Shown piece after piece: positions 3,200 through 26,518 of a DNA stretch of 32,000 nucleotides. Source of the stretch: Nitrososphaera viennensis EN76 (GTDB lineage: Archaea > Thermoproteota > Nitrososphaeria > Nitrososphaerales > Nitrososphaeraceae); assembly GCF_000698785.1 (NCBI RefSeq), contig NZ_CP007536.1:1890001-1922000 (forward strand). Direction: 5' to 3'. The notes beneath the pieces are model-generated. The model was given only the letters and a program-made list of their open reading frames with translations. It searched no databases and was not told the origin of the DNA. Positions within the stretch are counted from its first letter, which is position 1. Every line of letters begins with the position of its first letter. A program made the translations under genes and the position numbers.

Positions 3200-3209
3200 G
3201 TGTCTCTCA

Positions 3210-6728: not shown

Positions 6729-6770
6729 AATACGGGGTACGCGGCTTGGAGTATAAGAATTACTGAATTG

Positions 6771-7289: not shown

Positions 7290-7389
7290 CGCTTGCCTTT
7301 GTAAAAGCTGGCCAGGCCGTATTTAGGTGTGGCGGAGCCAGATTCCATCCGATGGAATTTATAACCAACCTGCAATCCTTTTTGCTGAA

Positions 7390-7695: not shown

Positions 7696-7738
7696 AAGAT
7701 AAAAGGGACGTTTTTGCAGTGCTAACAGCGACTACACT

Positions 7739-9148: not shown

Positions 9149-9227
9149 TAGTTTTTCACACTTTGGTGCATCATTGTGGACACTATCACTAATGTGAAGC
9201 AGAGGCGGCAAGTAACAGCAAGCGACG

Positions 9228-9566
9228 ATGAAGATACTGGACGGTAAGCGCGTAGGTACTGTAACCTTTGAGGAGGACGGCCTGCTCATAGGCGAGGTGC
9301 TGGGCGACGTCATCGTCAACGGCGGCTACCTGGAGCTGAAGGGCAGGGTGCTTGGAAACGTGCTCGTGAGGGGCGGCTCGTGCAGGCTCACGGGCATCGT
9401 CAAGGGAAACGCCGTGAACGAGAAGGGCGACCTTGAGGTGTTTGGCGCAGTCCACGGCAAGGTGATAACAAAGCTGGGCTACACCTACGTCAATCCCGGC
9501 GCAGCGGTAGGCGGCATTGAAAGCGCCCACATAAAGAAGGAAGGGGCGACGTCGACGCCAGTCTAG
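9228..9566 (+). CDS. Bactofilin-like (polymer-forming beta-helical) protein
   Basis: 112 aa. It shows a repeating G-x-V/I-x-G-(D/N)-V pattern (GEVLGDVIVNGGYLELKGRVLGNVLVRGG..LTGIVKGNAV..GDLEVFGAVHGKV), as in DUF583/bactofilin windings. Confidence 0.55.
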   Translation: MKILDGKRVGTVTFEEDGLLIGEVLGDVIVNGGYLELKGRVLGNVLVRGGSCRLTGIVKGNAVNEKGDLEVFGAVHGKVITKLGYTYVNPGAAVGGIESAHIKKEGATSTPV

Positions 9567-9775
9567 CCTGCGGTTGTTGCTTTTGCCTGCTTGATCTTTT
9601 CCAGGTCCTTCTGCAGCGCCTCTATGGTTTTCGGTATCTCTTTTTCGGCGCAGCCAAGGCACATCTGCTGGAGCGACAGCGGGTACGCGAAATAGCGCTC
9701 GTTGAGGGCGATGTCGCGCTTGCACGTGACGCACTTTTTCATCTTGTACGGGTCGGTGTTTTTCGTTATCATCAC
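9563..9775 (-). CDS. Small CxxC...CxxC zinc-binding protein
   Basis: 70 aa with KCVTCKRD...MCLGCAEKE. Its start abuts the stop of the beta-CASP RNase gene (9776), so it is probably co-transcribed. Confidence 0.45.
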   Translation of the reverse strand: MMITKNTDPYKMKKCVTCKRDIALNERYFAYPLSLQQMCLGCAEKEIPKTIEALQKDLEKIKQAKATTAG

Positions 9776-11038
9776 TCACACTTCCACCACTTCGCCCTGC
9801 TCGGGCGCGCGAGCCTCGTAGCCGTATTTCTCCTTTATCTCTTGCGCAAACTTTTCGCACGAGGGCCCGTCGCCGTGCACGGTGAGGACCTTGGGGTTGC
9901 CCTGCACGCGGTCCAGTATCTCAAATAACTCACTTCGGCTGTTATGTCCGGAAAACTCGAAGCGCTTGACGTCGGCGTAGCACTTTCTCATCTTGCCGTC
10001 AAAGTTGGCCACGCGCTTGTCAAGGAGCATCTTGCCGGGCGTGCCCTCTCCCTGGTACGAGACGAGGGCGATGCCGTTCTTTTCGCTTCCCATCATCTCC
10101 TGCGTGTAGAATATCGCAGAGCCTCCGACCAGCATGCCTGCCGGCGAAATGATGACGCACGGCTCGTTGACCACCTTCCTGCGCCTGCCCCAGCCGGTTA
10201 TCCACTCGGCGCCTCCGATTGCGCGCTTGAACATCTCCGGGTCGCGCAGGAACGCGGGGTGGCGGCCCATGATCTCGTTTGCCTTGAGCGCCATGCCGTC
10301 CATGACGACCTTGTGCTTGAAATTGTAATGCTCAAGGACGCAGGCGATCTCTTGCGCCCTCTCGACGGAGAAGGAGGGTATGAACATCGTGCCGCCCCGC
10401 TCGATGACCTCGTAGCAGAACTCTATCAGCTCCCGCTCTGACTGCTCGCGGGGCGTCTGCTCGTTCTGCGAGTACGTGCTCTCTATTATCATCATGTCAA
10501 TCGGCCCAAAGTCAAGGTCCGCCGGACGCAAGAGTTTCGAGCCGCGGGTGTTGATGTCGCCGGTGTAGAACAGCTTTTTGCCCTCATGCTCCACCGTGAC
10601 AGTCGAGCCTCCGACGACGTGGCCCGATTCATATAACGTTACCTTGGCGTCGTTTACCATGTACGGCTCCCTGTACTGCAGTTTCTTGGAGCTTTTCAGC
10701 ATGGTCATGACGTCGATGTATTCAAACGGCAGGTAAAAGCCCGACAGCTTGATCATGTCCTCTATCAAGAGCTCGGACAGCTCAAACGTCGGCAATGTAC
10801 CTAATGCTGGTATGTCTGTGGTTCCTGAAAGATACAGTGACGGAACAAACCCGGAATGGTCGAGGTGCGCGTGCGTGATAACGACGGCGTCGACCTCCTT
10901 TGGCTTGACGTGCATCGGGAAAACTGGCTCCCTCTTTAATAGCACGCCATAATCCATCAGTATGTTCGTGTTGTTGCAGTTTGCGAGAAAAGCGGAACGG
11001 CCGACTTCCTTTGCGGCCCCCATTACCTTAACTTTCAA
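9776..11038 (-). CDS. Metallo-beta-lactamase / beta-CASP ribonuclease (aCPSF2-like, no KH domains)
   Basis: 420 aa. It has the HxHxDH motif (THAHLDHSG), beta-CASP motif B-like SGHNSRSEL and motif C-like LTVHGD. Confidence 0.85.
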   Translation of the reverse strand: MKVKVMGAAKEVGRSAFLANCNNTNILMDYGVLLKREPVFPMHVKPKEVDAVVITHAHLDHSGFVPSLYLSGTTDIPALGTLPTFELSELLIEDMIKLSGFYLPFEYIDVMTMLKSSKKLQYREPYMVNDAKVTLYESGHVVGGSTVTVEHEGKKLFYTGDINTRGSKLLRPADLDFGPIDMMIIESTYSQNEQTPREQSERELIEFCYEVIERGGTMFIPSFSVERAQEIACVLEHYNFKHKVVMDGMALKANEIMGRHPAFLRDPEMFKRAIGGAEWITGWGRRRKVVNEPCVIISPAGMLVGGSAIFYTQEMMGSEKNGIALVSYQGEGTPGKMLLDKRVANFDGKMRKCYADVKRFEFSGHNSRSELFEILDRVQGNPKVLTVHGDGPSCEKFAQEIKEKYGYEARAPEQGEVVEV

Positions 11039-11126
11039 TCTGTTTACAGCAGCAAATCTTGTCTGTAGGCGCTTTAAAGCTTGCTAATTGAACAGGAGGG
11101 AGGGGCGTGCTTCCAGTGGAACTGCA

Positions 11127-12719
11127 TTATCGAGGGTTGGTTCTTTTATATCTCGTAAACCGTGCAGCGGCCACAATCCCTCCTGTGGCCAGCGCTGCTG
11201 CGACGATTGCAGCCGTCGTCCCAAATTCAGGCACCGTTGTAACGTCTTCGAGTATTGTGGCGCTGCCAAACGTCTTGCCGCCGTCTGTGCTTGCTCTCAT
11301 AATTATGCGCTGTTCTTGGGATGACACTGTCGCATTAATGGCTTCAAGCCACAATGCATAGACGTTATCATGTGACGCCACCAACAGCACGTTAGATGGT
11401 GGAGGAATTTCTGGTACATACTCTTTTTCTACCAGATCAGTCTGATTTTCGACGCTCGATCTATCTTCATAACCTGCTGCAAACGATACCCTTCTTTCTG
11501 TCTCTGAAAAGATAGACCATAACAGATATGCCTTGCCATCTTCAGTGATGATCATCTGCCTGTTGCTACTCTGCTCCGACTTGAATTCCCCGGGCATAGG
11601 CTGCGTCACCCTCTCAAAGTTCCTACCGCCATCCGTGCTTTTCAACAAAAGATAGCCGTTTTCTCCCGGCGCCTGCAACAGGACGTACACGTCTCCATCA
11701 CGAGTCCATAAAGACGGGATGGAAATGGCCCCCATTCCTTCTGCATAATCTTTTGACAGGTTTACTTTGCTGCTGAATGTCTGGCCGCGGTCATTGCCTG
11801 AGGAAAAGTAAAGATTGTTGTCTTTTTCCTTCCACAGGAGGTAAACGTTGCTTCCGTCAGCTGCGACGCTTGGGAATCCCGGCATGGACAGCTCGTCACC
11901 TGTCAGCTTGTCCAGCAGCATTGGTTCGCCAAAGCTGCTGTAAGCCAGCTTGTCAACTGGCACCGGCTCGTCCAAGCTTCCGTCTGGGTCGTAACCTTTT
12001 GCAAATAACGCCTTGGTTGAGCAGGTCGGCTCAATCATAAATTCGCACCTTGCATCCTCTGACCATACAACATAGATGTTATTGCCTGACGCTGCAATCC
12101 TCGGATTAACGGATTGAGCATCGCTTTTGCTCACATTGATAGGTGGGCCAAAGCTCCTGCCATCATCGTCGCTTTTCCTGAAGATAATCTCGCCCTGAGC
12201 GTCATTCCACACTACGTATACTCTATCGCTGCTGGCAAGAATCCGCCCTCCATCTACAAAAGGCCCGGCTGACCCGATATTGCCCAAGAATCCTTCTCCA
12301 AGCGTAATGGTTTCGCCAAAACTTGTGCCGTTGTCATTGCTTGCCTTGAAGAGTATGTCTCCTCCGTCTCCCCACATGACATAGACGTTGCTCCCTTCGA
12401 CGGCCATGTGTGGATATGCTGTGCATAAGGGACCTGAATGGTAGAGGCTTGTGACCTCGCCAAACGTCTTGCCGCCATCGGTGCTGTGCTTGAAGAAAAC
12501 GTTGTGGTCTCCCTGTCCATTGTAATAGCCTGTTTCATGCTCCCACAAGACGTACAGGTTGTCGCCTTCTGCCGCTGCCTGCATTCTGTACACACCGTAA
12601 GCCATGCACAGCGCATCTGCAGCGGGGAGTATTTGATAGGCAATATTTGCAAGCAAAAGCGACATAATGACAACCAGCACAGCCGGCAAGAATGACTGAC
12701 GCATTTCTTGAGCGATCAT
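11127..12719 (-). CDS. Secreted BNR/Asp-box repeat (sialidase-fold beta-propeller) protein with a PEFG-type C-terminal sorting signal
   Basis: 530 aa with an N-terminal signal/TM. It has six Asp-boxes (STDGGKTF, SNDNGTSF, SDDDGRSF, GNDRGQTF, STDGGRNF, STDGGKTF). The C-terminus is PEFG + hydrophobic helix + RFTRYKRTNPR. Confidence 0.8.
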   Translation of the reverse strand: MIAQEMRQSFLPAVLVVIMSLLLANIAYQILPAADALCMAYGVYRMQAAAEGDNLYVLWEHETGYYNGQGDHNVFFKHSTDGGKTFGEVTSLYHSGPLCTAYPHMAVEGSNVYVMWGDGGDILFKASNDNGTSFGETITLGEGFLGNIGSAGPFVDGGRILASSDRVYVVWNDAQGEIIFRKSDDDGRSFGPPINVSKSDAQSVNPRIAASGNNIYVVWSEDARCEFMIEPTCSTKALFAKGYDPDGSLDEPVPVDKLAYSSFGEPMLLDKLTGDELSMPGFPSVAADGSNVYLLWKEKDNNLYFSSGNDRGQTFSSKVNLSKDYAEGMGAISIPSLWTRDGDVYVLLQAPGENGYLLLKSTDGGRNFERVTQPMPGEFKSEQSSNRQMIITEDGKAYLLWSIFSETERRVSFAAGYEDRSSVENQTDLVEKEYVPEIPPPSNVLLVASHDNVYALWLEAINATVSSQEQRIIMRASTDGGKTFGSATILEDVTTVPEFGTTAAIVAAALATGGIVAAARFTRYKRTNPR

Positions 12720-12772
12720 ATGGTATTTTCATTACATATTAGACTTCTGTAAGACACTCTAGTCTCTTTTAT

Positions 12773-13579
12773 CTAGCCAAAGCGCACCTGCCATAGCGGA
12801 TCCTGCACGGCAGGATTTTCCAGCTGTTGCATGTACCCAAACCCGCACTCGTCCAGCACGGATTCAAAGTCGTATCTTTCCTTGATTGAGGGCTCGGCCG
12901 CCGCCTGCTTTTCCAGAGCCTTCTTTACCCTAGCAGCCATGTTTGGCCTGGCATAGACGTACCAGAGGTTGTGCGCGCCGCGCATCCTTGCCAGCTGCGC
13001 GCGTTTTTCCTCTGGCATCTTTGTGTAATGGCGGTTCATGATCTCGATATTGACGTCCTCCCACGAAGGCGTACGCCACCACGCGACGCGCTCAAAGCCG
13101 TGGCCATCAAACTCGGCTGCAAGGCTGATGCCCTGGTCAAGCGTCGTGACAATGACGTCAGTGCTCCTGGCAACGGGGTCGCGAAAGTCCTGCCCCGGCT
13201 CCATCCATCCTACAAAGATAACGTCGTATTTCCTGTCGATCCAGTGCGCGTCGGCTATCCTGATATAGTCAGGTTTTGCGATGCCGAGGCCGTAGAATAT
13301 GCCGGCGTCCTTTTCAAGCCCCTCTGCGCCCGGCAAATACTCCCTTATTCTTTTCAAAAAGTCTCCATAGCCGCAGCCAACGTCAAGGTAGCTTGGATTG
13401 TTATCGTTAACTGCCCTTGCTATCGCAACGACGCGCAGCACGTCGACCTTGCGATAGGAAAAGTAGGTGCCGGCAAAGAACGGAAAGCTGTATCGCGCGT
13501 GGTGCGGCGACGCGGCGTTTCTCTGGAACTGCGCAAACGACGCCATCGCCTTTCGCAGGTCGTCAGTGACAAACGGCAT
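12773..13579 (-). CDS. Class I SAM-dependent methyltransferase (paralog 1)
   Basis: 268 aa with SAM motif I YLDVGCGYGDFLK. It aligns full-length to the adjacent gene. Confidence 0.75.
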   Translation of the reverse strand: MPFVTDDLRKAMASFAQFQRNAASPHHARYSFPFFAGTYFSYRKVDVLRVVAIARAVNDNNPSYLDVGCGYGDFLKRIREYLPGAEGLEKDAGIFYGLGIAKPDYIRIADAHWIDRKYDVIFVGWMEPGQDFRDPVARSTDVIVTTLDQGISLAAEFDGHGFERVAWWRTPSWEDVNIEIMNRHYTKMPEEKRAQLARMRGAHNLWYVYARPNMAARVKKALEKQAAAEPSIKERYDFESVLDECGFGYMQQLENPAVQDPLWQVRFG

Positions 13580-13582: not shown

Positions 13583-14401
13583 CTAGTCCAGGATCACTTC
13601 CCACAGGCGTTTTGCAGTTGTAACCGTTGCAAGCTCTTCTTTGTACCCAAACCCGCACTCGTCCAGCACGCCTTCAAAGTCATACCTTTCTTTTGCATCC
13701 TCCCTTGCGATGTGCGACGCAAGAGCCTCCCTTATCTTGTCAGCAAGCTCTGGCCTTGCATAGACGTACCAAAAGTTGTGCGCGCTGCGCAGAGTTGCAA
13801 GGTGGCGCTTTTTCTCCTCCGAAAGCGACGGCGTGTAGTAACGGTTCATAAGCTCGGCGTTTACGTCTATCCACGAGGGCGTCCGCCACCACGCTATTTG
13901 CTCAAAGCCAAACTCGTCGTACTCGCAGCCGCCGTTTACCCCGCACTGGCCGCCTGCGTCAAACGTCGTAATGACGCACTTTGCAATCTTTGCCACCTGC
14001 CTGCGAAAGTCGGCTCCCGGCTCCATCCACCCGACAAACGCCACGTCCACCGGCTTTGACAATAGTGACTCGACAGGCGCAATCTCGATGTAGGCGGGCT
14101 TTTCCATGCCCAGCGCGTAAAATATCCCGCCTTCCTTTTCGACTCCTGACGCGCCCGGCAAATACTCTATCACCTTTTTCAGGAAATCCCCATAGCCGCA
14201 ACCGACATCTAGGTAGCTTGGCTTTTCATTCACCGCTTTTGCTATCGCAACGACGCGCAGCACGTCGACCTTGCGGTATGCAAAATACGATCCAGTGAAA
14301 AATGGGAAAATGTATCGCGCATGGTGCACTGGCGGGTTTTTCTCAGCAAACTGCCGGTAAGCTTTATGTGCTTTCTGCAATTCTTCCAGCTTGAAAGACA
14401 T
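13583..14401 (-). CDS. Class I SAM-dependent methyltransferase (paralog 2)
   Basis: Track ORF 13583..14425. The start is placed at MSFKLEELQKA (ATG at 14399-14401) because it aligns with the paralog-1 N-terminus MPFVTDDLRKA. It has the same YLDVGCGYGDFLK motif. Confidence 0.75.
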   Translation of the reverse strand: MSFKLEELQKAHKAYRQFAEKNPPVHHARYIFPFFTGSYFAYRKVDVLRVVAIAKAVNEKPSYLDVGCGYGDFLKKVIEYLPGASGVEKEGGIFYALGMEKPAYIEIAPVESLLSKPVDVAFVGWMEPGADFRRQVAKIAKCVITTFDAGGQCGVNGGCEYDEFGFEQIAWWRTPSWIDVNAELMNRYYTPSLSEEKKRHLATLRSAHNFWYVYARPELADKIREALASHIAREDAKERYDFEGVLDECGFGYKEELATVTTAKRLWEVILD

Positions 14402-14530
14402 GGCTCGTGCGCGCAGTGCTGCCACTGACTCGTCCCTATATGTTGCTTCATGCGCATAGGGTTTTTCACCTATAACACCGTTTACAAAACCCCATAACGC
14501 TTATTAAGTTCCGTTCGTTACTCCTGACTT

Positions 14531-14752
14531 ATGGTTAGGAAATTTGACGACTGGTGGAAGACAGTTCCAGCTGACTTGAAGGCAAAGGCTCGCAAGGGTG
14601 ACGAGTCCAACAAGCCATTGCTCAACCAGGTTAACTACGTTCTTCTGCACCTTCACTTGGCAGGCAAGCACGATGCAAAGCCGACCCACGAGGAGCTGAA
14701 GGACTGGCTACACAGTGGCCAAGTTGACGTCCTGAGACAGGGCGGCAAGTAA
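14531..14752 (+). CDS. Hypothetical small protein
   Basis: 73-aa ORF in an otherwise non-coding gap, followed by a polypyrimidine tract. No family recognised. Confidence 0.4.
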   Translation: MVRKFDDWWKTVPADLKAKARKGDESNKPLLNQVNYVLLHLHLAGKHDAKPTHEELKDWLHSGQVDVLRQGGK

Positions 14753-14767
14753 AAGCAAGAAAAAACA

Positions 14768-14802
14768 CTTCTCTCTTTTTTCCTTTTCTTTTTCATCTTT
14801 TC
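14768..14802 (+). terminator. Polypyrimidine (CT/T-rich) tract, putative archaeal terminator
   Basis: cttctctcttttttccttttctttttc (27 nt of pure pyrimidine, 14768-14794) begins 16 nt after the stop at 14752. Confidence 0.4.
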
Positions 14803-14915
14803 ATCGATGAGCGGATGCTATTCTGTTACCTTTATGAGAATGTTATAACAGTGTTTTGGGATATGCATAGAGTTTAAATAGTTTCAAGCACTGACAACGC
14901 TTAGTGAATTAATAG

Positions 14916-15209
14916 ATGCCAATTGCTATACTTCCAGACGTCGATGAGCAAAGATGCATCGGCTGCGCGCTCTGCGTAGAAATCTGCACCGCTCTCGGTC
15001 CAGATGTACTCAGGGTCAAGCCGGTGGAAGGATGGAAGAGGGGTAAGGCATTTGTCTTCTATCCAGAGAGATGCATCTCCGACGGAGCATGCGTCGGTGT
15101 GTGCCCAACACACGCTATATTCTGGATGAGGCCGATGGAATACACCCCAGGACAGCCAGTCCCGCTGCACAAGAACGGTGTGTTCAGCAAGGGCTGGGAA
15201 GAAGGTTAA
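14916..15209 (+). CDS. 2x[4Fe-4S] ferredoxin-domain protein
   Basis: 97 aa with two cluster motifs, CIGCALCVEIC and CISDGACVGVCP. A tttaaata TATA-like box lies at 14873-14880. Confidence 0.8.
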   Translation: MPIAILPDVDEQRCIGCALCVEICTALGPDVLRVKPVEGWKRGKAFVFYPERCISDGACVGVCPTHAIFWMRPMEYTPGQPVPLHKNGVFSKGWEEG

Positions 15210-15224
15210 AAGTCCATCCCCAAA

Positions 15225-15258
15225 CTCTTTCTCTCTCTTCTCTTTTTCTCCTTTTTCC
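15225..15258 (+). terminator. Polypyrimidine tract, putative archaeal terminator
   Basis: A 34-nt pure pyrimidine run (ctctttctctctcttctctttttctcctttttcc) starts 16 nt after the ferredoxin stop. Its composition matches the 14768 tract. Confidence 0.4.
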
Positions 15259-15419
15259 AAATTTTCAAAACTTATTTCTACTAGTTCGTCGATCGTACTG
15301 CTACAATATGTGCGACTACATGTATTATGAAGAGTTGCGCAAGCACAAGGTCAGAAAGCAGATACCGGAGCCAGAGCGGGAACTGGAGCCGATAGAAGAA
15401 GAAAAGAAGCCGATCATCG

Positions 15420-16043
15420 TCAACGCCTAGAAAACGTGTCTGCCAGCCGGAGAGGCTCTGGCAGCCACTCTCCTTTCTTTGTCATGCTTCTGACGAGGGA
15501 AACAGCAGATTCAAGCGACATCCTGTGGCCTACGCTCACGTACAAGTTCTTCTTCTTGCGACCCTCTGCCGCTATCGTGTAGCCAAGGGTCTCGCCGCCA
15601 AGCTCGATGTAATTGTCATTCCTCACGCTTCCGCATAGCAGGCTCTTTGCAGCACCTATCGCCGGCTTGTCCTTGGCAACGCCGATGTAGCATGCAAGGC
15701 CGCACCTGCGAGGGTGCAGCAGCCCGTGGCCGTCCACCATGACAAGGTCGTAGCGGTCCAGGCGTTTTAGCGTGCGCAGGATGGGGCCAGCCTCCCGCAG
15801 CATGAAAAGGCCGGGGATGTACGGGTGCCTGATCTCGCTTTTCGTGCTTGCCTGCTCCACTATATTCAGGTCGGTATCCATGACAACGGCAGAGCAGTGC
15901 GCCACGCCTGCGCGGTACGAGACGTCGACTCCGCACACAAGCTTTATGTCCCCATGATCGTCTCTTGCAACGACCTTTTTTGCGATCTCTTTTTGCTGCC
16001 GGACTGCGGCAGCCGGTGTGGACGGCAGTCTATAGCCTGTCAA
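15420..16043 (-). CDS. nfi: Endonuclease V (deoxyinosine 3' endonuclease)
   Basis: 207 aa with VCGVDVSY, PYIPGLFMLRE and VDGHGLLHPRRCGLACYIGV motifs. It overlaps the tgtA stop by 14 nt. Confidence 0.9.
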   Translation of the reverse strand: MTGYRLPSTPAAAVRQQKEIAKKVVARDDHGDIKLVCGVDVSYRAGVAHCSAVVMDTDLNIVEQASTKSEIRHPYIPGLFMLREAGPILRTLKRLDRYDLVMVDGHGLLHPRRCGLACYIGVAKDKPAIGAAKSLLCGSVRNDNYIELGGETLGYTIAAEGRKKKNLYVSVGHRMSLESAVSLVRSMTKKGEWLPEPLRLADTFSRR

Positions 16044-18005: not shown

Positions 18006-18221
18006 TTAGGCCAGCAGCGCTTCCAGGCGGTCAAAAGCGCCGTGCCAGCGCTCCTTTGCACGCGCAACGTCCGCGGGCCTGGCAAGCTTGTTCTGCTGCA
18101 CCGCCACCATGCTCTTGCTCTCGTCCTTAGCGTAAAAGTTGGCCTCGACGTTCGTGCCATCCGGCCACGTTATGCGCATCGACTTTTCTTTGTAGCAATT
18201 GGACGAAAGGTGTTGTTGCAT
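18006..18221 (-). CDS. Hypothetical small protein (start uncertain: 18179, 18221 or 18263)
   Basis: Part of track ORF 18006..18263. The ATG at 18219-18221 lies about 27 nt downstream of an aaattat TATA-like element on the minus strand. No family recognised. Confidence 0.3.
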   Translation of the reverse strand: MQQHLSSNCYKEKSMRITWPDGTNVEANFYAKDESKSMVAVQQNKLARPADVARAKERWHGAFDRLEALLA

Positions 18222-18457
18222 AGAGCCGTTTTCTAAGCGTGCATAACTGCATAATTTGAGCATGGCTGCGCATAATTCCTTGCAGCCACATTGTCCTGAG
18301 AAATATCATCATTGCATTCTGCTTTCCAAGAAGATAAAAGAATTAGTTTCACGCAGTATGCTTTACTCCTTATCGATAAAAATAGGGATGAGATTGCATA
18401 TTGGTGATAATATTCTGGAGTTGCTAGTGCACACAAGGTTCTAAATACTAGTCAAGA

Positions 18458-18952
18458 TTGCAGAAAACTGTGCCAAAGAAAGAGCAGATAATAAATCAAT
18501 TCTATGATCAAGCATGGCACATATTAGAACTAATGAAGCAAGGAACTGATGACAATTATGTTATCGAGAAGCAGAAGCTATCTAATATTCTAGACCAATT
18601 GCAGGAGAAAGCAAACAATGCCGATTATATGGATATCTCTGATTTTTTCGTTGCCATTTTATTATATACACAAAAGAATTCAATACCCGAAATCAGTCGA
18701 GACGATCTCATAACTGCTATCGATGAAAGAATTTTTGGAAATCCAAAGAAGTTTCATTTTTACTTTAGACTCGGACGATTATTTGATTTCCCTGAAGGCT
18801 ATCAAGTTGGCTCTGGCAAATTATTCCCCTTCGACAAATTACCTGATTTTGCACAGAAGAACCTCAGTTGGGAATGGAAACATAAGTATAATATGGATCG
18901 ACTATATGCAACAGAAAAACTAACAGAATACAAAAAGCGTAGAAAAAAATGA
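18458..18952 (+). CDS. Hypothetical protein, AT-rich islet ORF 1 (possible N-terminal part of the next gene)
   Basis: 164 aa with a TTG start in the track; the first in-frame ATG is at 18533. It ends at a TGA immediately after an A7 run. No motif recognised. Confidence 0.45.
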   Translation: MQKTVPKKEQIINQFYDQAWHILELMKQGTDDNYVIEKQKLSNILDQLQEKANNADYMDISDFFVAILLYTQKNSIPEISRDDLITAIDERIFGNPKKFHFYFRLGRLFDFPEGYQVGSGKLFPFDKLPDFAQKNLSWEWKHKYNMDRLYATEKLTEYKKRRKK

Positions 18953-18959
18953 ATGGTAC

Positions 18960-19781
18960 ATGTATCTTGAAGTTGAATCTGTTGGTCAGAATAAAGCTAG
19001 GAAGAAGGCGATACTTGAAGCAAGAAGAAATATCAACATCCTGAAGATAGTGTATGATATTCACGGCACTCTTTTCGATCTTCATGCAGAATCCCCTTTT
19101 GATTACATATACCATATGGACAAAAGCAAATCGACCGGCGGGGGTTACAGAAACCATGGCAAAGAGACTATTTTTGTTAGAAGGGACTTCCTAGATCAGA
19201 TGGTCAGTGACATTACAAGTATGAGAATCAATAAACACCCATCCGATTTAGAGAAGAGACTGCTAAATGCTGTGGATATATTTGGATTGGTTGATGATGC
19301 AACCCCTCTACACATCAGATTTCTGCTTTGTATAATTGCTTTAGAGGGCATGCTCTTAGCAGAAGGTGAAAAAGACTATCTCGGATGGAAACTATCAGAG
19401 AAGGTTGCCTTCCTACTGGGAGATACACCTGCGTGGATTGTTACCTTCTATAGGATTCCGCCTGAAGATGTGAGAACGACCTTGACAGATGATTATATAA
19501 ACAAAAAAAGATCCTCCGCTAGAAGTGCGCTCGATAGACAGATGAAAAAGTTCTACGGTAAAAGGTCCGGGTTCGCCCATGGCGGCCTTGAGGCGGATAA
19601 AAGCAAGAAAATAAGCAGCGACGATTACAATATGATTTCATCAATACTAAGATGGACAATCGAAAAACTGATTGAATTGCATAAAAGCGGCATCAACCAT
19701 ATTGCAACTAAAGATAAAGAAAAGATAAGCGAAGATGCTTCATCGTTGGATGCATATATCGAGAAGTTAAGATACTCTTAG
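18960..19781 (+). CDS. HEPN-like domain protein (putative RNase / abortive-infection-type effector)
   Basis: 273 aa. It has an Rx4H motif in a typical HEPN context, KKFYGKRSGFAHGG (R202-H207, nt 19563-19580). That motif is preceded by helical segments LLNAVDIF... and FLLCIIALEGMLL..EKVAFLLGD, resembling Apea/Abi-type HEPN helices. Confidence 0.55.
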   Translation: MYLEVESVGQNKARKKAILEARRNINILKIVYDIHGTLFDLHAESPFDYIYHMDKSKSTGGGYRNHGKETIFVRRDFLDQMVSDITSMRINKHPSDLEKRLLNAVDIFGLVDDATPLHIRFLLCIIALEGMLLAEGEKDYLGWKLSEKVAFLLGDTPAWIVTFYRIPPEDVRTTLTDDYINKKRSSARSALDRQMKKFYGKRSGFAHGGLEADKSKKISSDDYNMISSILRWTIEKLIELHKSGINHIATKDKEKISEDASSLDAYIEKLRYS

Positions 19782-20445: not shown

Positions 20446-20571
20446 ATGAGGATCTGCGAGTCGTGCGGGCGTGTCAGGTTCTACTCGCTCAATTTCCTCT
20501 TTTCAAAGACGGTGTGCAACGAGTGCTACCTGGCAATGAAGGAAAGAGAGAAAGAGAAAAAGCGTCATTGA
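20446..20571 (+). CDS. Small zinc-ribbon protein (41 aa)
   Basis: The internal ATG of track ORF 20374..20571 gives MRICESCGRVRFYSLNFLFSKTVCNECYLAMKEREKEKKRH (CxxC...CxxC). Confidence 0.3.
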   Translation: MRICESCGRVRFYSLNFLFSKTVCNECYLAMKEREKEKKRH

Positions 20572-20984
20572 GCGCTTCCGCATTTCGTGCAGAACTTGGC
20601 ATTTGCCTTGAGCTTTTGCCCGCAGCTGACGCAGAACTTGCTGCTCTCTGGCTCGAGCGTTTCGCGGTTTATTGGCGTAAGCCGCGGCGGGGTCATCTGC
20701 TCGGTGGGAGCTGCCGCTGCCTGTACGTCGCCGTACATGTCCGCAACGGCTCCTGTAGGCTTGAACGAGTCATTCGTGTCCGGCGCAAACTCGGAGTTGC
20801 TTTTCTCGCCTTTTTCCTCGACGTAGAGCATGAGGCGTGGCACCTGTCCCTTGCCCGGTGCGTTCACCTGCTCGCCGAGCCACAGCGCAAATTTTTTCAG
20901 TGTCATCTCGGGCGTGGAAAAGGTGAGCGAGTGCGTGGACATGTACTCGTCGGTTGCAGACCTGCCATTGAAGACCTTGGTCAT
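20565..20984 (-). CDS. Protein with a C-terminal zinc-ribbon (FCxxCG...FCxxCG)
   Basis: 139 aa. The C-terminus is KFCVSCGQKLKANAKFCTKCGSAQ. The N-terminal domain is not recognised. Confidence 0.6.
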   Translation of the reverse strand: MTKVFNGRSATDEYMSTHSLTFSTPEMTLKKFALWLGEQVNAPGKGQVPRLMLYVEEKGEKSNSEFAPDTNDSFKPTGAVADMYGDVQAAAAPTEQMTPPRLTPINRETLEPESSKFCVSCGQKLKANAKFCTKCGSAQ

Positions 20985-21025
20985 AAGGTTGATCGCGCAG
21001 AGTCGCTATTAATATTATATTATTA

Positions 21026-21538
21026 TCATTGCGACTTGCCGCACTTGCTGCAGAACTTGGCATGCTGCGGTATGGACGCCCCGCAGAAAACGCAGCTCTT
21101 TGTATTGCTGCCGCCACTTGCCTTGGGCCTTGGTAGCTCGATGTCCACTGGCTTGAAAGTCGGCTCAGCTTGGGGCGACGGAAGCGTATACCCCGCAGAC
21201 GGTCCTACAGAACCTCCTGCGTTCACAAAGCCGCCGATGCCAAAGCCTGCCTGCTGCGGTGGCGCGGCGGTTGCCACTCCTCCCGTGGGGTTCTTTACCG
21301 ACGTGCCCTTGTCCATCGCGCCCTTGATCTCAAATATGACGCGGATGGCAAGAAAGTTCATCGCAGACGTGGCGACGAGGTAGTCGCCTATCCTTGCGAA
21401 ATACTCTTTTTCGCCCATCTTGCCCTGCTTGTACAGCTGCGTGGCGTCAATGAATGCCTCGTACATGCTCTGCGTGTCGTTTGACAGCTGCTTTAGCTTC
21501 TCGGACAGGCCGCCAAGCGTGTCGACGCCAAAAGACAT
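21026..21538 (-). CDS. Protein with a C-terminal zinc-ribbon, a Gly/Pro-rich linker and an N-terminal helical domain
   Basis: 170 aa. The C-terminus is SCVFCGASIPQHAKFCSKCGKSQ, the same module as the neighbouring gene. Confidence 0.6.
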   Translation of the reverse strand: MSFGVDTLGGLSEKLKQLSNDTQSMYEAFIDATQLYKQGKMGEKEYFARIGDYLVATSAMNFLAIRVIFEIKGAMDKGTSVKNPTGGVATAAPPQQAGFGIGGFVNAGGSVGPSAGYTLPSPQAEPTFKPVDIELPRPKASGGSNTKSCVFCGASIPQHAKFCSKCGKSQ

Positions 21539-21579: not shown

Positions 21580-22968
21580 TCAGTATCCGCCGTAGTTGCT
21601 GCGGCCGTACCCGCCGCGCCTTCCGCCGCCATAGCCGCCCCGGCGCTGTCCACCATAACCGCCGCGCCTTCCGCCGCCATAGCCTCCTCCGCGACCGCCG
21701 CCACCGTAGCCCCTATTACCACCATAACCGCCGCCACCGTACCCTCCACCTCCGCCATAGCCGCGGCTTCCATAACCGCCGCCGTATGACTGCCTGTTGC
21801 GGTATCCTCCGCCGCCGTACGAGCGTGGCTGCGCAACAGGAACTGCGATGCCCATCTCGTCGTTGAGCTTGCGTATCGGGAGCGTGGTCTGCGCAAGTAT
21901 GCGCTCCATGTCGGCTATCCTCTCGGCTGACACGAGCGAGATGGCCTTGCCCTCTGCGCCCGCCCTTGCCGTCCTTCCGATCCTGTGGAAGTACACGTTG
22001 GGGTCGTCAGGGATGTCGTAGTTGATGACGTTTCCTACCGCCGGCACGTCGATTCCCCTTGCGGCAATGTCGGTCGCGACAAGGATGTCCTCGGTGCCCT
22101 TGCGGAACTTGAACATCGCCTGGTCGCGCTGCCTCTGCGTGAGGTCGCCGTGGATGGCTATCGCTGAAAAGCCGTCCCTCTTTAGCTGGTGCGCAACCCT
22201 GTCAGCGCGCTGCTTTGTCGCGGCAAACACGATCGTCTGCGCCTTGGCGTCCCTGTTCTTCCTGATAAAGTCGCATAGGTGCCTGAACTTTTCACGCTCC
22301 TCCACCACCAGGTACGACTGCTCTATCGTGTCCAGCGTCACTTCCTCCTCGTTGAGCCTCACGTGCTCTATCTCCTTCATGTACTCCTCTGCCAGCCTGA
22401 GGATCTCTGGCGGCATCGTCGCCGAGAACAAGCAGGTCTGCCTGTCCTCGTTGACGTAGAACAGGATGAACTTGATGTCGTCGATGAATCCCATGTCAAG
22501 CATCCTGTCAGCCTCGTCCATAACGACAAACTTGACGTCGTCAAGGATTATCGAGCCCTGCTTTATGTGGTCGATAAGCCTGCCGGGCGTTGCCACTACT
22601 ATCTGCACGCCCCTCTGCAATTTCTCGTTCTGGATGTTTATGCTCTGTCCGCCGTAGATGGCTACGGTCCTTATTCCCGTGTACTTGGCCAACCGGCTTA
22701 TTTCTGTAGTTACCTGCACCGCCAACTCTCTTGTCGGCACAAGCACCAGCGCCTGGACGGGGCCCTCGTTGCTGACGCGGGCCAGTATGGGCAGTCCAAA
22801 TGCTGCCGTCTTGCCGGTTCCTGTGTGCGCCTGCCCTATGACATCCTTACCCTGCAAAACAAGGGGTATAGCTGCCTCCTGTATAGGAAACGGCGCCTCA
22901 AATCCATTCTCGCTGAGCGCCTTGTTTAATTCCGCGCTCAGACCCAATTCTGCGAACGTCTTCGTCAT
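21580..22968 (-). CDS. DEAD-box ATP-dependent RNA helicase with an RGG/GY-rich C-terminal tail
   Basis: 462 aa. It has a Q motif (FEAPFPIQ), AHTGTGKT, PTRELA, DEAD (VMDEADRMLD), SAT and HRIGRTARAG, followed by an ~80-aa Gly/Arg/Tyr tail. Confidence 0.95.
   Translation of the reverse strand: MTKTFAELGLSAELNKALSENGFEAPFPIQEAAIPLVLQGKDVIGQAHTGTGKTAAFGLPILARVSNEGPVQALVLVPTRELAVQVTTEISRLAKYTGIRTVAIYGGQSINIQNEKLQRGVQIVVATPGRLIDHIKQGSIILDDVKFVVMDEADRMLDMGFIDDIKFILFYVNEDRQTCLFSATMPPEILRLAEEYMKEIEHVRLNEEEVTLDTIEQSYLVVEEREKFRHLCDFIRKNRDAKAQTIVFAATKQRADRVAHQLKRDGFSAIAIHGDLTQRQRDQAMFKFRKGTEDILVATDIAARGIDVPAVGNVINYDIPDDPNVYFHRIGRTARAGAEGKAISLVSAERIADMERILAQTTLPIRKLNDEMGIAVPVAQPRSYGGGGYRNRQSYGGGYGSRGYGGGGGYGGGGYGGNRGYGGGGRGGGYGGGRRGGYGGQRRGGYGGGRRGGYGRSNYGGY
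21583..21822 (-). repeat. Low-complexity coding repeat (GGY/RGG units) forming the helicase tail
   Basis: The protein reads ...GGGRRGGYGGQRRGGYGGGRRGGYG.... At the DNA level, ccgccgcgccttccgccgccatagcc occurs twice about 48 nt apart. Confidence 0.8.
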
Positions 22969-23113
22969 TTTTTATTCTTCACTTTGTTCTCTTTTGTTTT
23001 ATGTTCTTCTTGCGTGTATGCTTTTTTGCCACAAAAGTCGCACGGACGTTTCCGTTTTAAACCGTAAAACCTTTGTCTAGAACTTGTTACCTTTTACAAG
23101 GATATAAGGTTAG

Positions 23114-23121
23114 CTAACGAT
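23114..23121. repeat. Left copy of the 8-bp target-site duplication CTAACGAT
   Basis: It lies immediately outside the left IR and is identical to 26756-26763. Confidence 0.8.
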
Positions 23122-23144
23122 GATACTGTTGCGTCATTTGTGAT
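23122..23144. repeat. Left terminal inverted repeat GATACTGTTGCGTCATTTGTGAT
   Basis: The reverse complement of 26733-26755 is GATACTGTTGCGTAATTTGTGAT, with a single mismatch at position 14. The core ACTGTTGC resembles the IS26 end (GGCACTGTTGCAAA, recalled from memory). Confidence 0.85.
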
Positions 23145-23213
23145 AACCCCCTCTCCCTCAAATGAGCTGGCCATTAAATAGAAGCATATTCTATTCAGAT
23201 TTACCAAAGGGAT

Positions 23214-23744
23214 ATGGGTCGTGAGATGCCACATAATTCGTTAACAATTGCACGTTTCGAGAATGCCGAATTTATCATAGGCAATGGATTGCTTATCATT
23301 GGAGGTTTGATTCTTACTCCCAATACATTCAATGAACTTACTGTAGCTGGAGCGTTAATGATGCTAGGTGGCGTCATCTTGGACATCAGAGTTTTTAATT
23401 TATCCAAACTCGAACGTGATGTTCTATCAAAGAAAATAGAAGTCACCAAGACTCAGCTTGACGATGCTTTAAGAGACATGCAGGAAATGAGGCATTCAAT
23501 TATTGATGCCGAACGTAATCTAAAGCGCGCTATAACAGATATGGATGAACAAGAACAAAAGTTGAAACAACAACAGAAGCAACTTAAGGAAATGGAAAAG
23601 ACTACTTTCTCATTCATATCGAGAGCTCGTTCAGGCAGACCTTTAGAGGATATGCTAAAGGAAGCGTACCAAAGTCTTGACGCTTCTTTGAAATCTGTGG
23701 AAAAGAAACTCGGGATCTGGTCATCCAGAAGGTCTCCTTTCTGA
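23214..23744 (+). CDS. Hypothetical membrane protein with a C-terminal coiled coil (cargo)
   Basis: 176 aa. Two predicted TM helices (FIIGNGLLIIGGLIL; VAGALMMLGGVILDI) are followed by a heptad-like charged region (QLDDALRDMQEMRHSIIDAERNLKRAITDMDEQEQKLKQQQKQLKEMEK). Confidence 0.5.
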   Translation: MGREMPHNSLTIARFENAEFIIGNGLLIIGGLILTPNTFNELTVAGALMMLGGVILDIRVFNLSKLERDVLSKKIEVTKTQLDDALRDMQEMRHSIIDAERNLKRAITDMDEQEQKLKQQQKQLKEMEKTTFSFISRARSGRPLEDMLKEAYQSLDASLKSVEKKLGIWSSRRSPF

Positions 23745-23748
23745 GAGG

Positions 23749-23913
23749 CTACTTGGCAGCCAAATTTTCTTTAATCTTCTTTTCCCAGTCTGCCTGAGTT
23801 ATGACGCCTTTTTCCTCCAGCACATCTGACAGGCTGTCTAGCATAGTATTAAGCATAGAGACCTCTTCTCTAAGGTCATCAATCTCCGCTTCCAAGTTGC
23901 GCTTTTTACTCAT
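23749..23913 (-). CDS. Small coiled-coil protein (54 aa), below the track cutoff
   Basis: Own translation: MSKKRNLEAEIDDLREEVSMLNTMLDSLSDVLEEKGVITQADWEKKIKENLAAK*. Its ATG overlaps the stop of the upstream RHH gene (ATGAGTAA). Confidence 0.45.
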   Translation of the reverse strand: MSKKRNLEAEIDDLREEVSMLNTMLDSLSDVLEEKGVITQADWEKKIKENLAAK

Positions 23914-24064
23914 TCTTGTCTCCCCTCAGGTATCCCTTCTCAGACATCCATGAAGTAACTATCGCCCTAATTATGTCTGACCTGCCCTCTCCCATCGTAC
24001 CTTTCAGGCTATCGACAATCTCCATCAAGTTATCGGGGAGTGTCACTAAAGCCCTCGCCATCAT
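23906..24064 (-). CDS. Ribbon-helix-helix (CopG/Arc-like) DNA-binding protein (52 aa), below the track cutoff
   Basis: Own translation: MMARALVTLPDNLMEIVDSLKGTMGEGRSDIIRAIVTSWMSEKGYLRGDKNE*. It shows a beta-strand (ALVTLPDNL) followed by the GRSDIIRAIV helix pattern typical of RHH. An ATGA overlap with the transposase stop occurs at 24061-24064. Confidence 0.6.
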   Translation of the reverse strand: MMARALVTLPDNLMEIVDSLKGTMGEGRSDIIRAIVTSWMSEKGYLRGDKNE

Positions 24065-24999
24065 GCCTTCACCTCAACAACCTGCTCTTCAGGCTTTCGT
24101 TCGCCGCCATGCTCCAACGCCTGATCCTGAGTCGCCTTGTCTATCAGCTCTGACCAGCCGTTAGTTATCTGGATGCCTGCCGCCTGCGCGGGTGTTTTCT
24201 TTATCGTTTGGTGCTTTCTGACATAGTTGTAATTTACAACGTAGCCGTCAAGCAGTATCTTAGATGCCTTTTCGTTCTTTAGTCCACGCATAGGACGCAG
24301 CCTGTCTTTCAACGTTCCATGTACACGCTCTACGACGTTGTTGGTTGTCCTTGCCTGAATGCCAACACGCTTGACAAGCTCGACGCGGTTAGCCTTGTAC
24401 CTGCTGTAGTAGACCTTGTTGAACGCTCTGTCATAGCTGTTGCTACCATCCACAAAGATTACTTTTGGCCTTTCTTTTGTTATCCTGTTTGCACTTTCAA
24501 ATATCTTCATTGTCTCTTCGATTGTGCGCTCGCCGCCTAGGTGTGAGCCAACTAGGAATTTTGTCTCTTCGTCTATCATTTCCCAGAACCAGACGTTTCT
24601 ACCCTCGCACTTTATCATGGTTTCATCTTCGTGCCACTTGCCTGATGTCTCTGGGTTCATCTTCTCTTCGCAGAACTTGCTGACTAGAGCAGAGTACTTG
24701 ACAATCCAGCGATAGATTGTCGAAGAGTCAACTTTTTCTCCCATCAATTGCGCAAGCTGGTTCTGCACCTTTCGGACTGACAGGCCATCGAAATATAGGT
24801 TAAGGGCTGCAACAATGACGTGCTTCTTTACCTTCATCTTGCTAGGCTGTCCGTTGTTGTAAAAGCGGTGTGAGCAGTTTCTGCACCTGTAGACCTGCTG
24901 GCCGTGTACCTTGCCGTCTTTTACTACCTTGTAGGACATGCAATATTTGCATCGGACATTTTCGCTTTGTTCTGTCGTGCTTGCGGTTGTGTTGCTCAC
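24061..24999 (-). CDS. IS6-family (IS240-type DDE) transposase with an N-terminal zinc finger
   Basis: 312 aa with a GTG start. It has the zinc finger CKYC...CRNCSHRF. The DDE-region pattern is WHEDETMIKCEGRNVWFWEMIDEETKFLVGSHLGGERT ... FVDGSNSYDRAF ... NNVVERVHGTLKDRLRPMRG. Confidence 0.85.
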   Translation of the reverse strand: MSNTTASTTEQSENVRCKYCMSYKVVKDGKVHGQQVYRCRNCSHRFYNNGQPSKMKVKKHVIVAALNLYFDGLSVRKVQNQLAQLMGEKVDSSTIYRWIVKYSALVSKFCEEKMNPETSGKWHEDETMIKCEGRNVWFWEMIDEETKFLVGSHLGGERTIEETMKIFESANRITKERPKVIFVDGSNSYDRAFNKVYYSRYKANRVELVKRVGIQARTTNNVVERVHGTLKDRLRPMRGLKNEKASKILLDGYVVNYNYVRKHQTIKKTPAQAAGIQITNGWSELIDKATQDQALEHGGERKPEEQVVEVKA

Positions 25000-25000
25000 G

Positions 25001-25089
25001 TATATCCATATGCATATACCTTATATATACTTATATCCATATGGATATATCATGGATGTATTTGCAAATTACAATTGCATATATTTATC
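25001..25089. promoter_or_regulatory. Divergent promoter/operator region dense in palindromes
   Basis: The 12-mer TATATCCATATG is repeated at 25001 and 25032. There is a perfect 18-bp palindrome TATATCCATATGGATATA (25032-25049) and a 10-bp palindrome ATATGCATAT (25008-25017). TATA-like ttatatatac (25021-25030) lies 22-31 nt upstream of the transposase GTG, and catatatttatc (25078-25089) lies about 30 nt upstream of the ATG at 25116. Confidence 0.55.
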
Positions 25090-25115
25090 AGGAGGTAGAT
25101 TCAATTAATTTTATC

Positions 25116-25322
25116 ATGTCATTGACGCACAAACCAAATCCATTTGGACAAATCTTGTGCTGGTCTGGCAGACATTTAATCAGTGAAGAAGATGAACAAG
25201 AATTAATCGATTCTCCGACTGGCAGGTATGAAACAATGTGCGACCGATGCCATCGGAAGATTATTTTGGAAATCGACCCAGAAAATGAAGATGAATACTT
25301 TATCAAAGAACCAAACGATTAG
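25116..25322 (+). CDS. Small acidic Cys/His protein (68 aa) (cargo)
   Basis: The internal ATG of track ORF 24870..25322 gives MSLTHKPNPFGQILCWSGRHLISEEDEQELIDSPTGRYETMCDRCHRKIILEIDPENEDEYFIKEPND. C-x4-H ... CxxCH could bind metal. Confidence 0.4.
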   Translation: MSLTHKPNPFGQILCWSGRHLISEEDEQELIDSPTGRYETMCDRCHRKIILEIDPENEDEYFIKEPND

Positions 25323-26053
25323 CCGTTTTTCTCTTTCTCTTTTGGCAAGTCTGAAAATGGTATGTCTACCTTTGCGTTAGCTTTTGCTTTCATTTTTTTA
25401 GGCTTTGGCAATTTGCCTTTGACAGGCCACTTGATCCCTCTATAGAAGAATACGAGCGCGAATGTGTATATGATAAATGTGAAATCAAAATGTGTCTTAT
25501 TCCAAGGCGGAGTGGTGGGATATGGATTGTCCCAAAATGAAAGTTGGTATTGATAAAGGAACGAGAATGCAATGAATAGAGCAAAGAATGTTGCGGTTAT
25601 TATCATTCTGCGTACTCTGATTTTGTGCTCTTCCCTCTCTTCTTCCCGATATTCCAAAATTTTCAGTATGTCCCATAGCAAATACAACCCGAACATGATC
25701 GGAAGAATCCACTGAAAAATATCGCCAAAATGACCTTTGCTTTCGGGGTTGGCTACACTTACTATGTAGTACGTGAGAAATACTACAACTAGGTCAACAA
25801 CAAACCGCGCATTACCCAACTTGCCTTTATGCGGATTTTTGGTAATTGAGCGATGATATCCTATCCACCCAGATACAACAATAAAGTAAACCATTAACAT
25901 CCCCGACGCATCGATAAATGAGCGATAATCAGAAAGCACGTTGCTAAACGGTATGAAAATATGATCGACCTGCACGAAGCTCTGACCTATTATCACTGCA
26001 ACCATAATCTCGAGGAAATTCCTGTAAAATTCGCTGAGTTTCTTATAGTGCAA
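25319..26053 (-). CDS. Hypothetical polytopic membrane protein (cargo)
   Basis: 244 aa with about 6 hydrophobic helices and a Lys-rich C-terminal tail. No family recognised. Confidence 0.55.
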   Translation of the reverse strand: MHYKKLSEFYRNFLEIMVAVIIGQSFVQVDHIFIPFSNVLSDYRSFIDASGMLMVYFIVVSGWIGYHRSITKNPHKGKLGNARFVVDLVVVFLTYYIVSVANPESKGHFGDIFQWILPIMFGLYLLWDILKILEYREEEREEHKIRVRRMIITATFFALFIAFSFLYQYQLSFWDNPYPTTPPWNKTHFDFTFIIYTFALVFFYRGIKWPVKGKLPKPKKMKAKANAKVDIPFSDLPKEKEKNG

Positions 26054-26187
26054 TTGTCGAGAGCTAGCTTCCAGCTAATACGGATTTTAAACATTGCTGT
26101 GTTCTGTAAAACTTGTATATTTTACACCATCTGGAGCTAAGAAAAGCTGACTGATAAAGAAATCAGGTACTAATTTTGAATTACTCT

Positions 26188-26349
26188 ATGATAGGCGCCA
26201 TTATTACCGCAATCATACTCATAATTTTAGGCGGTGTGTTAATTTCTTCAGGTGCTTCAACAGACACAATCGCAACATGGCCGCTGATTTTAGGCGGAGT
26301 TGTTGCAGTCGGTATAGGCGTTGTTTTGATCTGGAAAGCGATTACGTAA
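26188..26349 (+). CDS. Small two-TM membrane protein (53 aa), below the track cutoff
   Basis: Own translation: MIGAIITAIILIILGGVLISSGASTDTIATWPLILGGVVAVGIGVVLIWKAIT*. It competes with the antisense track ORFs 26181..26387 and 26290..26472. Confidence 0.35.
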   Translation: MIGAIITAIILIILGGVLISSGASTDTIATWPLILGGVVAVGIGVVLIWKAIT

Positions 26350-26518
26350 ACATGCCTTCCAACCAAGAAAGAATCCACCAAGCGCAATGGTAGAGAATAG
26401 GCTTGTCACTACAAGGATATTCACAAGGTAATCTGCAAACGTGCCAAATGCAAAGGGAAATGGAAATGCCACATCTTGTATGTGGCAAAGGAAGCTTTAT
26501 GGCTATCGCTCAGCGTTT

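Follow-up and report, generated by a model that had tools for sequence, protein, structure and literature searches.

An AT-rich islet of Nitrososphaera viennensis EN76 probably carries a foreign, frameshifted gene distantly related to ApeA

This article concerns an AT-rich islet at positions 18230-19781 of a 32-kb stretch (32,000 nucleotides, hereafter the window) of the genome of the archaeon Nitrososphaera viennensis EN76. The explanation that we favour, with moderate confidence, is that the islet is a horizontally acquired defence gene, encoding a distant ApeA-like HEPN ribonuclease (RNase), which has been inactivated by a frameshift in this strain. The gene is seen as two open reading frames (ORFs) between the genes for an Lsm protein and a Fap7-like kinase. 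The parts of the islet to which we refer are the following.

18264..18457, no strand assigned: AT-rich non-coding leader of the islet, 5' of the gene (from the composition profile)
18458..18952, + strand: ORF1, the N-terminal family-specific module, truncated by the frameshift (aligned to residues 1-164 of homologues of 420-455 residues)
18943..18949, + strand: homopolymer of seven A (A7), the +1 frameshift site (from in-silico deletion of one A)
18960..19781, + strand: ORF2, 273 residues, homologous to the Mid and HEPN modules of ApeA (from homologues, an AlphaFold2 (AF2) model and hhalign)
19344..19400, + strand: conserved glutamate codons in predicted HEPN helices 1 and 2 (conserved in 90% or more of 101 representatives of the family)
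19554..19583, + strand: putative catalytic motif Y-G-K-R-S-G-F-A-H-G (Y, S and H invariant, R at least 90% conserved in the same representatives)

ORF1 and ORF2 are one gene, broken by a +1 frameshift in the A7 run. If one A is removed in silico (A6), the result is a product of 440 residues that can be aligned over its whole length with the family described below; around the junction the A6 frame reads ...EYKKRRKNEWYMYLEVESVG, co-linear with the sequence of homologues, for instance ...GYTKRREKEWYLHIQVQCVG. The homologues are for the most part single proteins of 380-455 residues (commonly 420-455) that span both ORFs, and 101 of the 166 proteins retrieved have at least 340 residues, hence one-piece genes are the rule. 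In the window, ORF1 has 164 residues if it starts at the TTG at 18458, or 160 if it starts at the GTG at 18470, and it ends with a TGA at 18950-18952; the ATG of ORF2 comes 8 nucleotides past this stop. An earlier first-pass annotation of the window, made by a model from the sequence, had described ORF1 as an N-terminal partner region with no recognisable motif. Indeed, ORF1 has no match in Pfam, NCBIfam or PADLOC. It was not explicit in that annotation that the partner and the larger ORF are halves of one frameshifted gene.

Homopolymers are classic sites of indel errors, and it could be argued that the split is an error of sequencing or assembly, with the real gene being intact. In our opinion this is extremely improbable. 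Gene calling gives the split form on 19 contigs, which come from many independent runs and assemblers (megahit, SPAdes, Logan), and A7 is found in all eight same-strain contigs that were fetched, each at least 99.95% identical to the window, with A6 or A8 in none of them. Because it recurs in 19 contigs from many runs, A7 is a fixed feature of the strain, not a read error. Neither ORF has any other lesion and every conserved residue is kept, so that the lesion is probably recent. Hence the locus in N. viennensis EN76 is probably a recent pseudogene, that is, an inactivated or crippled defence gene.

An exhaustive profile search returned 608 representatives of the family at 50% identity with E<=1e-3, 236 of them with E<=1e-10, and no member bears a name from its source. 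Homologues occur in genomes of Nitrososphaera, of other Nitrososphaeraceae (Nitrososphaerales) and of Bathyarchaeia, and the genome matches are archaeal. When homologues were sought a third time, with the 101-sequence profile and a limit of 8000 candidates, no annotated relatives were gained. We counted conservation in an alignment of 101 full-length representatives, mutually no more than 50% identical, and we number residues as in the repaired protein. Y366, S370 and H374 are the sole invariant residues; R369, E296, E314, D59 and G118 are each at least 90% conserved, and 98 of the 101 sequences have RSxxxH. In ORF2 the motif reads KKFYGKRSGFAHGG, with Y199, R202 (codon 19563-19565), S203 and H207 (codon 19578-19580) corresponding to Y366, R369, S370 and H374. 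The two glutamates are E129 of ORF2 (19344-19346, in 'ALEG'), which is E296 of the repaired protein, and E147 (19398-19400, in 'KLSEK'), which is E314. There are two subgroups, distinguished by the insert before the motif helix, which is either long (about 35 residues) or short (about 11 residues); the window protein belongs to the long one. Over their full length the subgroups are one family (hhalign 100%, E=3e-71).

In HEPN domains, helix 3 ends with an Rx4-6H motif whose Arg is followed by a polar residue; a conserved acidic residue is found upstream, and helices 2 and 3 are separated by an insert of low conservation (PMC3710099). The first-pass annotation had noticed an Rx4H motif in the larger ORF. 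The motif is there (R202-S-G-F-A-H207, with Ser as the polar residue), and its residues are conserved as just described. From the family alignment, AF2 builds the repaired protein with high confidence (predicted local distance difference test, pLDDT, 86.6; predicted template modelling score, pTM, 0.84); the AF2 models that cover ORF2 have pLDDT 81-87. In the C-terminal part of the full-length model, the helices 284-299 (with E296) and 308-320 (with E314) are followed by a variable helical insert, then by the long helix 344-375, a loop at 376-386 and a helix at 387-409. KRSGFAH ends the long helix 344-375, which takes the place of helix 3, and it is by indels in the region 321-343, between helices 2 and 3, that the short and long subgroups differ. 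Both glutamates are in the upstream helices, neither of them in the typical Ex3[KR] form.

The connection to ApeA became visible with profiles of the family. The profile of the short subgroup (A5) finds Ec4ApeA, an antiviral defence protein of E. coli with a solved structure, among the PDB sequences (9hxm_A, E=1.9e-11, 47 bits): profile positions 158-286 fall on ApeA 256-385, ending at ...ALESLTL, and a weak second stretch aligns LYnKRSrfvH with LYLLRNTIVH. The 101-sequence profile (A3) finds the same entry at E=1.1e-6. For the window protein, hhalign places residues 169-300 on Ec4ApeA 260-385 (E=0.006) and, with the register unchanged, KRSGFAH on LRNTIVH; ALEGMLL of the window protein aligns with ALESLTL of ApeA. 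The PDB match is restricted to ApeA 256-385 and 484-541. Profile positions 1-157 have no match in the PDB and the N-terminal region has none in Pfam, so an ApeA-type N-terminal domain was not found by these searches.

In Pfam, the C-terminal consensus of the family has HEPN_Apea as its top match (E=0.003 and 18.4 bits, below the gathering score of 24.4). HEPN_RiboL-PSP (E=0.009-0.017 and 16.4 bits, below the gathering score of 28.4) and Csx1_HEPN are also among the top matches, and all of these HEPN matches span the KRSxFxH stretch; no HEPN-clan model is matched at its curated threshold. When the 101 members were scanned with Pfam, HEPN_Apea was matched by three (best E=0.12), being the sole family matched by more than one member, and DUF3644 by one (E=1.1e-3); ten further members scanned singly for HEPN_Apea gave no match. 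From these sequence comparisons we conclude that the family is likely a distant sister of ApeA, with ApeA's Mid and HEPN modules. The first-pass annotation had seen a resemblance to Apea/Abi-type HEPN proteins and had called for profile searches. Its ApeA half is supported by the family profiles. No sequence similarity to any Abi model of Pfam or PADLOC was detected.

It is useful to spell out how the family compares with known systems. Like ApeA (Ec4ApeA, 9hxm; HEPN_Apea, PF18739), which it resembles in profile over ApeA 256-385 (Mid and HEPN helix 1), it is encoded by a single gene, and the neighbourhoods examined show no conserved partner; HEPN_Apea heads the Pfam matches of its consensus, and its LY.KRSxFxH weakly, co-linearly matches LYLLRNTIVH. 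However, the family is about 30% shorter (380-455 residues against about 560-620 in ApeA), its N-terminal 160 residues have no detectable similarity to ApeA, and it has Ser where ApeA has Asn after the catalytic Arg. It also stays below the Pfam threshold and returns no PADLOC ApeA model, and its genome matches are archaeal, whereas ApeA is bacterial; the window copy, in addition, is frameshifted. With other HEPN RNases (RiboL-PSP, Csx1/Csm6, HepT) the family shares Rx4H and the polar residue at the end of helix 3 (PMC3710099) and the variable insert between helices 2 and 3; its conserved upstream glutamates may correspond to their acidic residue, and its consensus gives the sub-threshold HEPN_RiboL-PSP and Csx1_HEPN matches. 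It differs from them in lacking the Ex3[KR] acidic form, in giving no significant Foldseek match to a solved HEPN structure and in having no visible MNT or antitoxin partner. Finally, the lactococcal-type Abi proteins with HEPN domains (Abi_2/AbiD/AbiF, AbiU2, AbiV) are likewise encoded by stand-alone, horizontally mobile, AT-rich genes with a HEPN effector; as said, no sequence similarity to their models was detected.

One may still object that the gene did not encode a defence nuclease at all. The C-terminal helical domain would then merely resemble HEPN, and the gene could be an addiction or selfish element, take part in RNA processing or have a non-catalytic role. In favour of this view are the lack of an above-threshold Pfam match and of a significant neighbour in fold searches; moreover, the similarity to ApeA is strongest in the Mid/H1 region, while the Rx4H stretch aligns weakly (1-4 bits). 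We nevertheless consider it quite unlikely. The sole invariant residues of 101 diverse sequences lie in Y..(K)RSxxxH, the position of the motif and the order of helices fit the definition of HEPN (PMC3710099), and the top sub-threshold Pfam matches are all to HEPN families and all cover the motif. Against a housekeeping role in particular speak the patchy distribution, the AT bias and the neighbourhoods with defence genes and mobile elements, to which we turn below.

That the gene favoured here is foreign to its site is suggested by composition and by comparison with relatives. With 37.8% GC, the islet is the lowest 1.55-kb stretch of the window; in 1552-bp sliding windows over the 32 kb (mean 53.0%, standard deviation 5.3) this minimum of 37.8% starts at 18229. 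For N. viennensis EN76 a G+C content of 52.7% has been published (PMC4129164). The abrupt fall to about 37% that the first-pass annotation had reported is therefore real, and the value of about 70% that it gave for the adjacent tgtA region is too high, the measured flanks having about 57% (ranges of 55-57% and 55-61%). At third codon positions the GC content (GC3) amounts to 33% for ORF1 and 42% for ORF2, and the Lsm, tgtA, nfi and kinase genes on either side have 67-74%. These flanking genes had been named correctly as Sm-like/tgtA/nfi and Fap7-like kinase: domain matches are LSM+Lsm_C, TGT and Endonuclease_5 on one flank and AAA_18 (Fap7/AK6-type kinase) on the opposite one. The left boundary of the islet is approximate, the drop in GC being spread over about 18200 to 18350. 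At the other end, the stop codons of ORF2 (+) and of the kinase gene (-) overlap tail-to-tail by 4 bp (19778-19781), which means that the insertion directly abuts the kinase stop.

With the kinase as a probe we obtained 80 related metagenomic loci, about 40 of which carry both flanks. In these about 40 loci the order of two zinc-ribbon proteins, kinase, Lsm and tgtA is kept, with a gap between kinase and Lsm of 45-1118 bp (1810 bp in the window), and a homologue of ORF1 or ORF2 is present in none of them. Whether the islet occurs in relatives was one of the checks proposed in the first-pass annotation, and the answer is that it is not universally conserved. In the closest relative, L015 (84% nucleotide identity), homology ends right at the kinase stop, at window position 19774. 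Because L015 carries different sequence there, the site is variable between close relatives; this other sequence, past the kinase stop (L015 2035-2173), is GC-rich and seemingly starts another gene (...DWKQWFSLLDKASAKDKSHKEIAEYL...). In other genomes, too, the gene has less GC than what surrounds it, for example 44.6% versus 59.2% in L003 and 40.4% versus 52.4% in L011. Compositional anomaly is thus combined with absence from the syntenic site, as one would expect of horizontal acquisition.

The neighbourhoods of the homologues are typical of defence or mobile regions. In L096 the member lies between a DISARM-like set (DEAD/Helicase_C, MZB, PLDc_2 and a C5 methylase) and an AAA_5 McrB-like gene; positions 1-13271 of this locus form a compact archaeal defence island, in which the AAA_5 gene has a partner of 487 residues. 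The member of L098 is near HATPase_c_3 and a methyltransferase, that of L095 near SLFN_AlbA_2, and that of L003 near PIN/MazE and TumE, while in L102 the genes on either side of the member encode IS66 and IS110 transposases and a restriction-modification enzyme of Type ISP. In L011 (7046-11840), from a metagenome-assembled genome of Nitrososphaera sp., the member at 9740-10918 is followed by a gene that, read from its sequence, encodes an HNH endonuclease of 170 residues. Upstream in the same locus, and read in the same manner, are a ThiF/E1-like-looking protein of 497 residues and a protein of 345 residues with a hydrophobic C-terminus. No neighbour is common to L003, L011, L095, L096, L098 and L102, and since no partner gene is shared by the loci examined, the family fits a stand-alone, single-gene system. 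It is homology, together with these neighbourhoods in other genomes, that points to a defence role.

The copy of N. viennensis is not the only damaged one. The P0002 contig has overlapping frames close to the same junction. L002 (50% identity) keeps the gene in one frame with an in-frame TAG and TGA (454-456 and 817-819), the TGA being at the junction, and both stops stand at positions that are Arg in homologues. L100 is frameshifted at a G5/T4 run near residue 113. The frameshift of L102 is in a run of eight A (A8), some 20 codons ahead of the junction, and L103 is damaged at several places. Such frequent decay is as expected for defence or toxin genes. We considered recoding of the stops in L002, by pyrrolysine or otherwise, but two different stops and the existence of other decayed copies fit a pseudogene better.

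The position of these lesions does raise the question of whether the break could be a functional fission, in which ORF1 as a sensor and ORF2 as a Mid-HEPN effector are both translated as a two-subunit system, or in which ORF2 acts alone. This is a possibility that we take seriously and yet find unlikely. It speaks for fission that homology to ApeA sets in at the break, as profile positions 158-164 onward correspond to ORF2 from residue 1 onward. The ATG of ORF2 follows the stop of ORF1 closely, both ORFs are otherwise undamaged with all their conserved residues, and the lesions of L002 (TGA), L102 (A8) and the P0002 contig are no more than about 20 codons away from the boundary. On the other hand, one-piece genes are the rule in the family, and its decay is general: L002 has the extra in-frame TAG upstream, L100 is broken at about residue 113 and L103 in several places. 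The AF2 models also count against fission: strand 166-174 directly continues elements encoded by ORF1, and the model of ORF2 alone is poor at its residues 35-71. The linker at the junction is rich in K/R/E and hence A-rich, which makes it a hotspot of slippage or mutation. As for the start Met shared by short representatives, it looks at first like recurrent fission at one site. We rejected that interpretation as a general rule, given that L100 is frameshifted about 50 codons upstream; the shared Met is an effect of gene calling, because the caller takes the first ATG.

An A-rich hotspot invites another thought, namely that slippage is a means of control. Transcriptional or translational slippage on A7, giving A6 or A9, or ribosomes shifting by -2 on A_AAA_AAA, would restore a little full-length protein, or the tract would be a reversible on/off (contingency) switch of a toxic defence gene. 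Frame arithmetic does permit restoration by -1 nucleotide, by +2 nucleotides or by a -2 shift, the lesion is in a homopolymer, and the frameshift of L102 is likewise in the longest A-run (A8) of that gene, in the same linker. Still, we think this very unlikely. There is no conserved slippery tract: in all five intact genes examined (L003, L011, L095, L096, L098) the linker has no homopolymer of six or more bases. ORF2 contains a second A7 run (19503-19509), which is in frame, so that A-runs appear to be simply common in this AT-rich gene. The eight same-strain contigs, all with A7, show no variation in length, and A7 is short for efficient slippage. Because the intact genes lack the tract and the second A7 is in frame, we take the A7 lesion for an inactivating mutation of the ordinary kind rather than a programmed one.

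Returning to a foreign, ApeA-like HEPN gene that was lost by frameshift, we have to admit a number of points that weigh against it. With regard to homology, the single sequences (ORF1, ORF2 and 36 homologues) find nothing significant in Pfam, NCBIfam, PADLOC, PHROGs or the PDB sequences; the HEPN_Apea match of the consensus is below the gathering score; PADLOC returns no ApeA model for the 101 members even at E<=10; and the profile of the long subgroup, the window's own, does not find ApeA in the PDB by itself. Foldseek searches of the PDB with the full-length and ORF2-only AF2 models give nothing at E<0.1 (the HEPN domain of sacsin, 3o10_A, has E=0.69 and prob 0.23, and Csx1-Crn2, 8y7f_B, has E of about 2-3), and nothing in BFVD. 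With regard to acquisition and defence, the islet bears no mobility signature. Significant flanking repeats, whether attachment sites or target-site duplications, a tRNA, Rfam families and terminators were looked for and not found; no integrase marks the islet, and the nearest transposase is 4.3 kb off (24061-24999). Nor are there defence genes in its neighbourhood within the 32-kb window. With regard to loss of function, the frameshift is our one ground for assuming it, and all contigs that carry the lesion come from one strain. In addition, ORF2 comprises the entire ApeA-homologous part and has its own ATG, so it might still be made. The suggestion of the first-pass annotation that this is a candidate defence islet therefore receives support from the ApeA homology and the foreign origin, but a working defence locus in N. 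viennensis EN76 is doubtful because the gene is frameshifted.

How the intact protein might have worked can be proposed by analogy. Bacterial ApeA is a ligand-activated oligomer that cuts tRNA anticodon loops or phage RNA and protects against viruses (10.64898/2026.01.26.701840; 10.64898/2026.03.20.713152). In our proposal a single foreign gene would have been inserted between the conserved genes for the Fap7-like kinase and Lsm. Its intact product of about 440 residues would begin with a family-specific module (about 1-165), continue with a 'Mid'-like alpha/beta module and end in a HEPN domain with Y..KRSxFAH. By analogy with ApeA, the HEPN domains would dimerise and form a composite metal-independent RNase site from R369, S370, H374 and the upstream glutamates E296/E314. 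This site would be silent until the non-HEPN modules, the N-terminal part acting as a sensor, detect a cue of infection; once triggered, it would cleave tRNA or viral RNA. In N. viennensis, one extra A in the A-run would then have split the gene into ORF1 (164 residues) and ORF2 (273 residues).

The need to describe this gene is easy to explain. Antiviral defence in ammonia-oxidising and other mesophilic archaea is poorly charted, and PADLOC, Pfam, NCBIfam and PHROGs are blind to the gene. Our analysis links to ApeA, whose mechanism was worked out only in 2026, a family without a name that comprises at least 600 sequence clusters, and it would bring archaea into the range of ApeA-like immunity, the putative sensor module being a different one. 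It also provides a testable prediction for the family, that of an infection-triggered HEPN RNase with R369 and H374 as candidate catalytic residues. The locus itself is a modest case, a single foreign gene seen soon after inactivation in a homopolymer, which illustrates fast turnover. A much bolder idea is that the family is an antiviral RNase system which is widespread in archaea and has escaped recognition until now, ApeA-like Mid-HEPN with a new N-terminal sensor, in which the A-rich linker is a recurrent break point that serves as a reversible off-switch or for conversion to a two-subunit system. We mention it as a long shot.

Some minor observations concern the rest of the window. Between Lsm and the islet is a small ORF (18006-18263, -) of 85 residues (57-71 in gene calls) with no Pfam match. 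Its homologues (50-55% identity) likewise adjoin Lsm in L021 and L025, and for this reason we regard it as native, apparently a small conserved gene of thaumarchaea. The two adjacent zinc-ribbon proteins upstream of the kinase are those at 20565-21538 (-), with 139 and 170 residues (DZR/Zn_Ribbon_1), a pair whose synteny is conserved over many Nitrososphaerales contigs at 62-92% identity. Downstream of nfi, the GC content at 14300-15400 is mildly low (42-50%), and two overlapping ORFs of 119 residues on opposite strands (14901-15260, -, and 15071-15430, +) are without a Pfam match. A second and larger low-GC region, at 22900-26400 and 3 kb from the islet, has 39-48% GC against about 56% around it and includes the following genes.

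23214-23744, + strand: coiled-coil-like ORF, 176 residues, GC3 38%
24061-24999, - strand: IS6/IS240-type DDE transposase (PF13610, E=1e-18)
25319-26053, - strand: membrane protein, 244 residues

This region is probably another mobile or foreign insertion.

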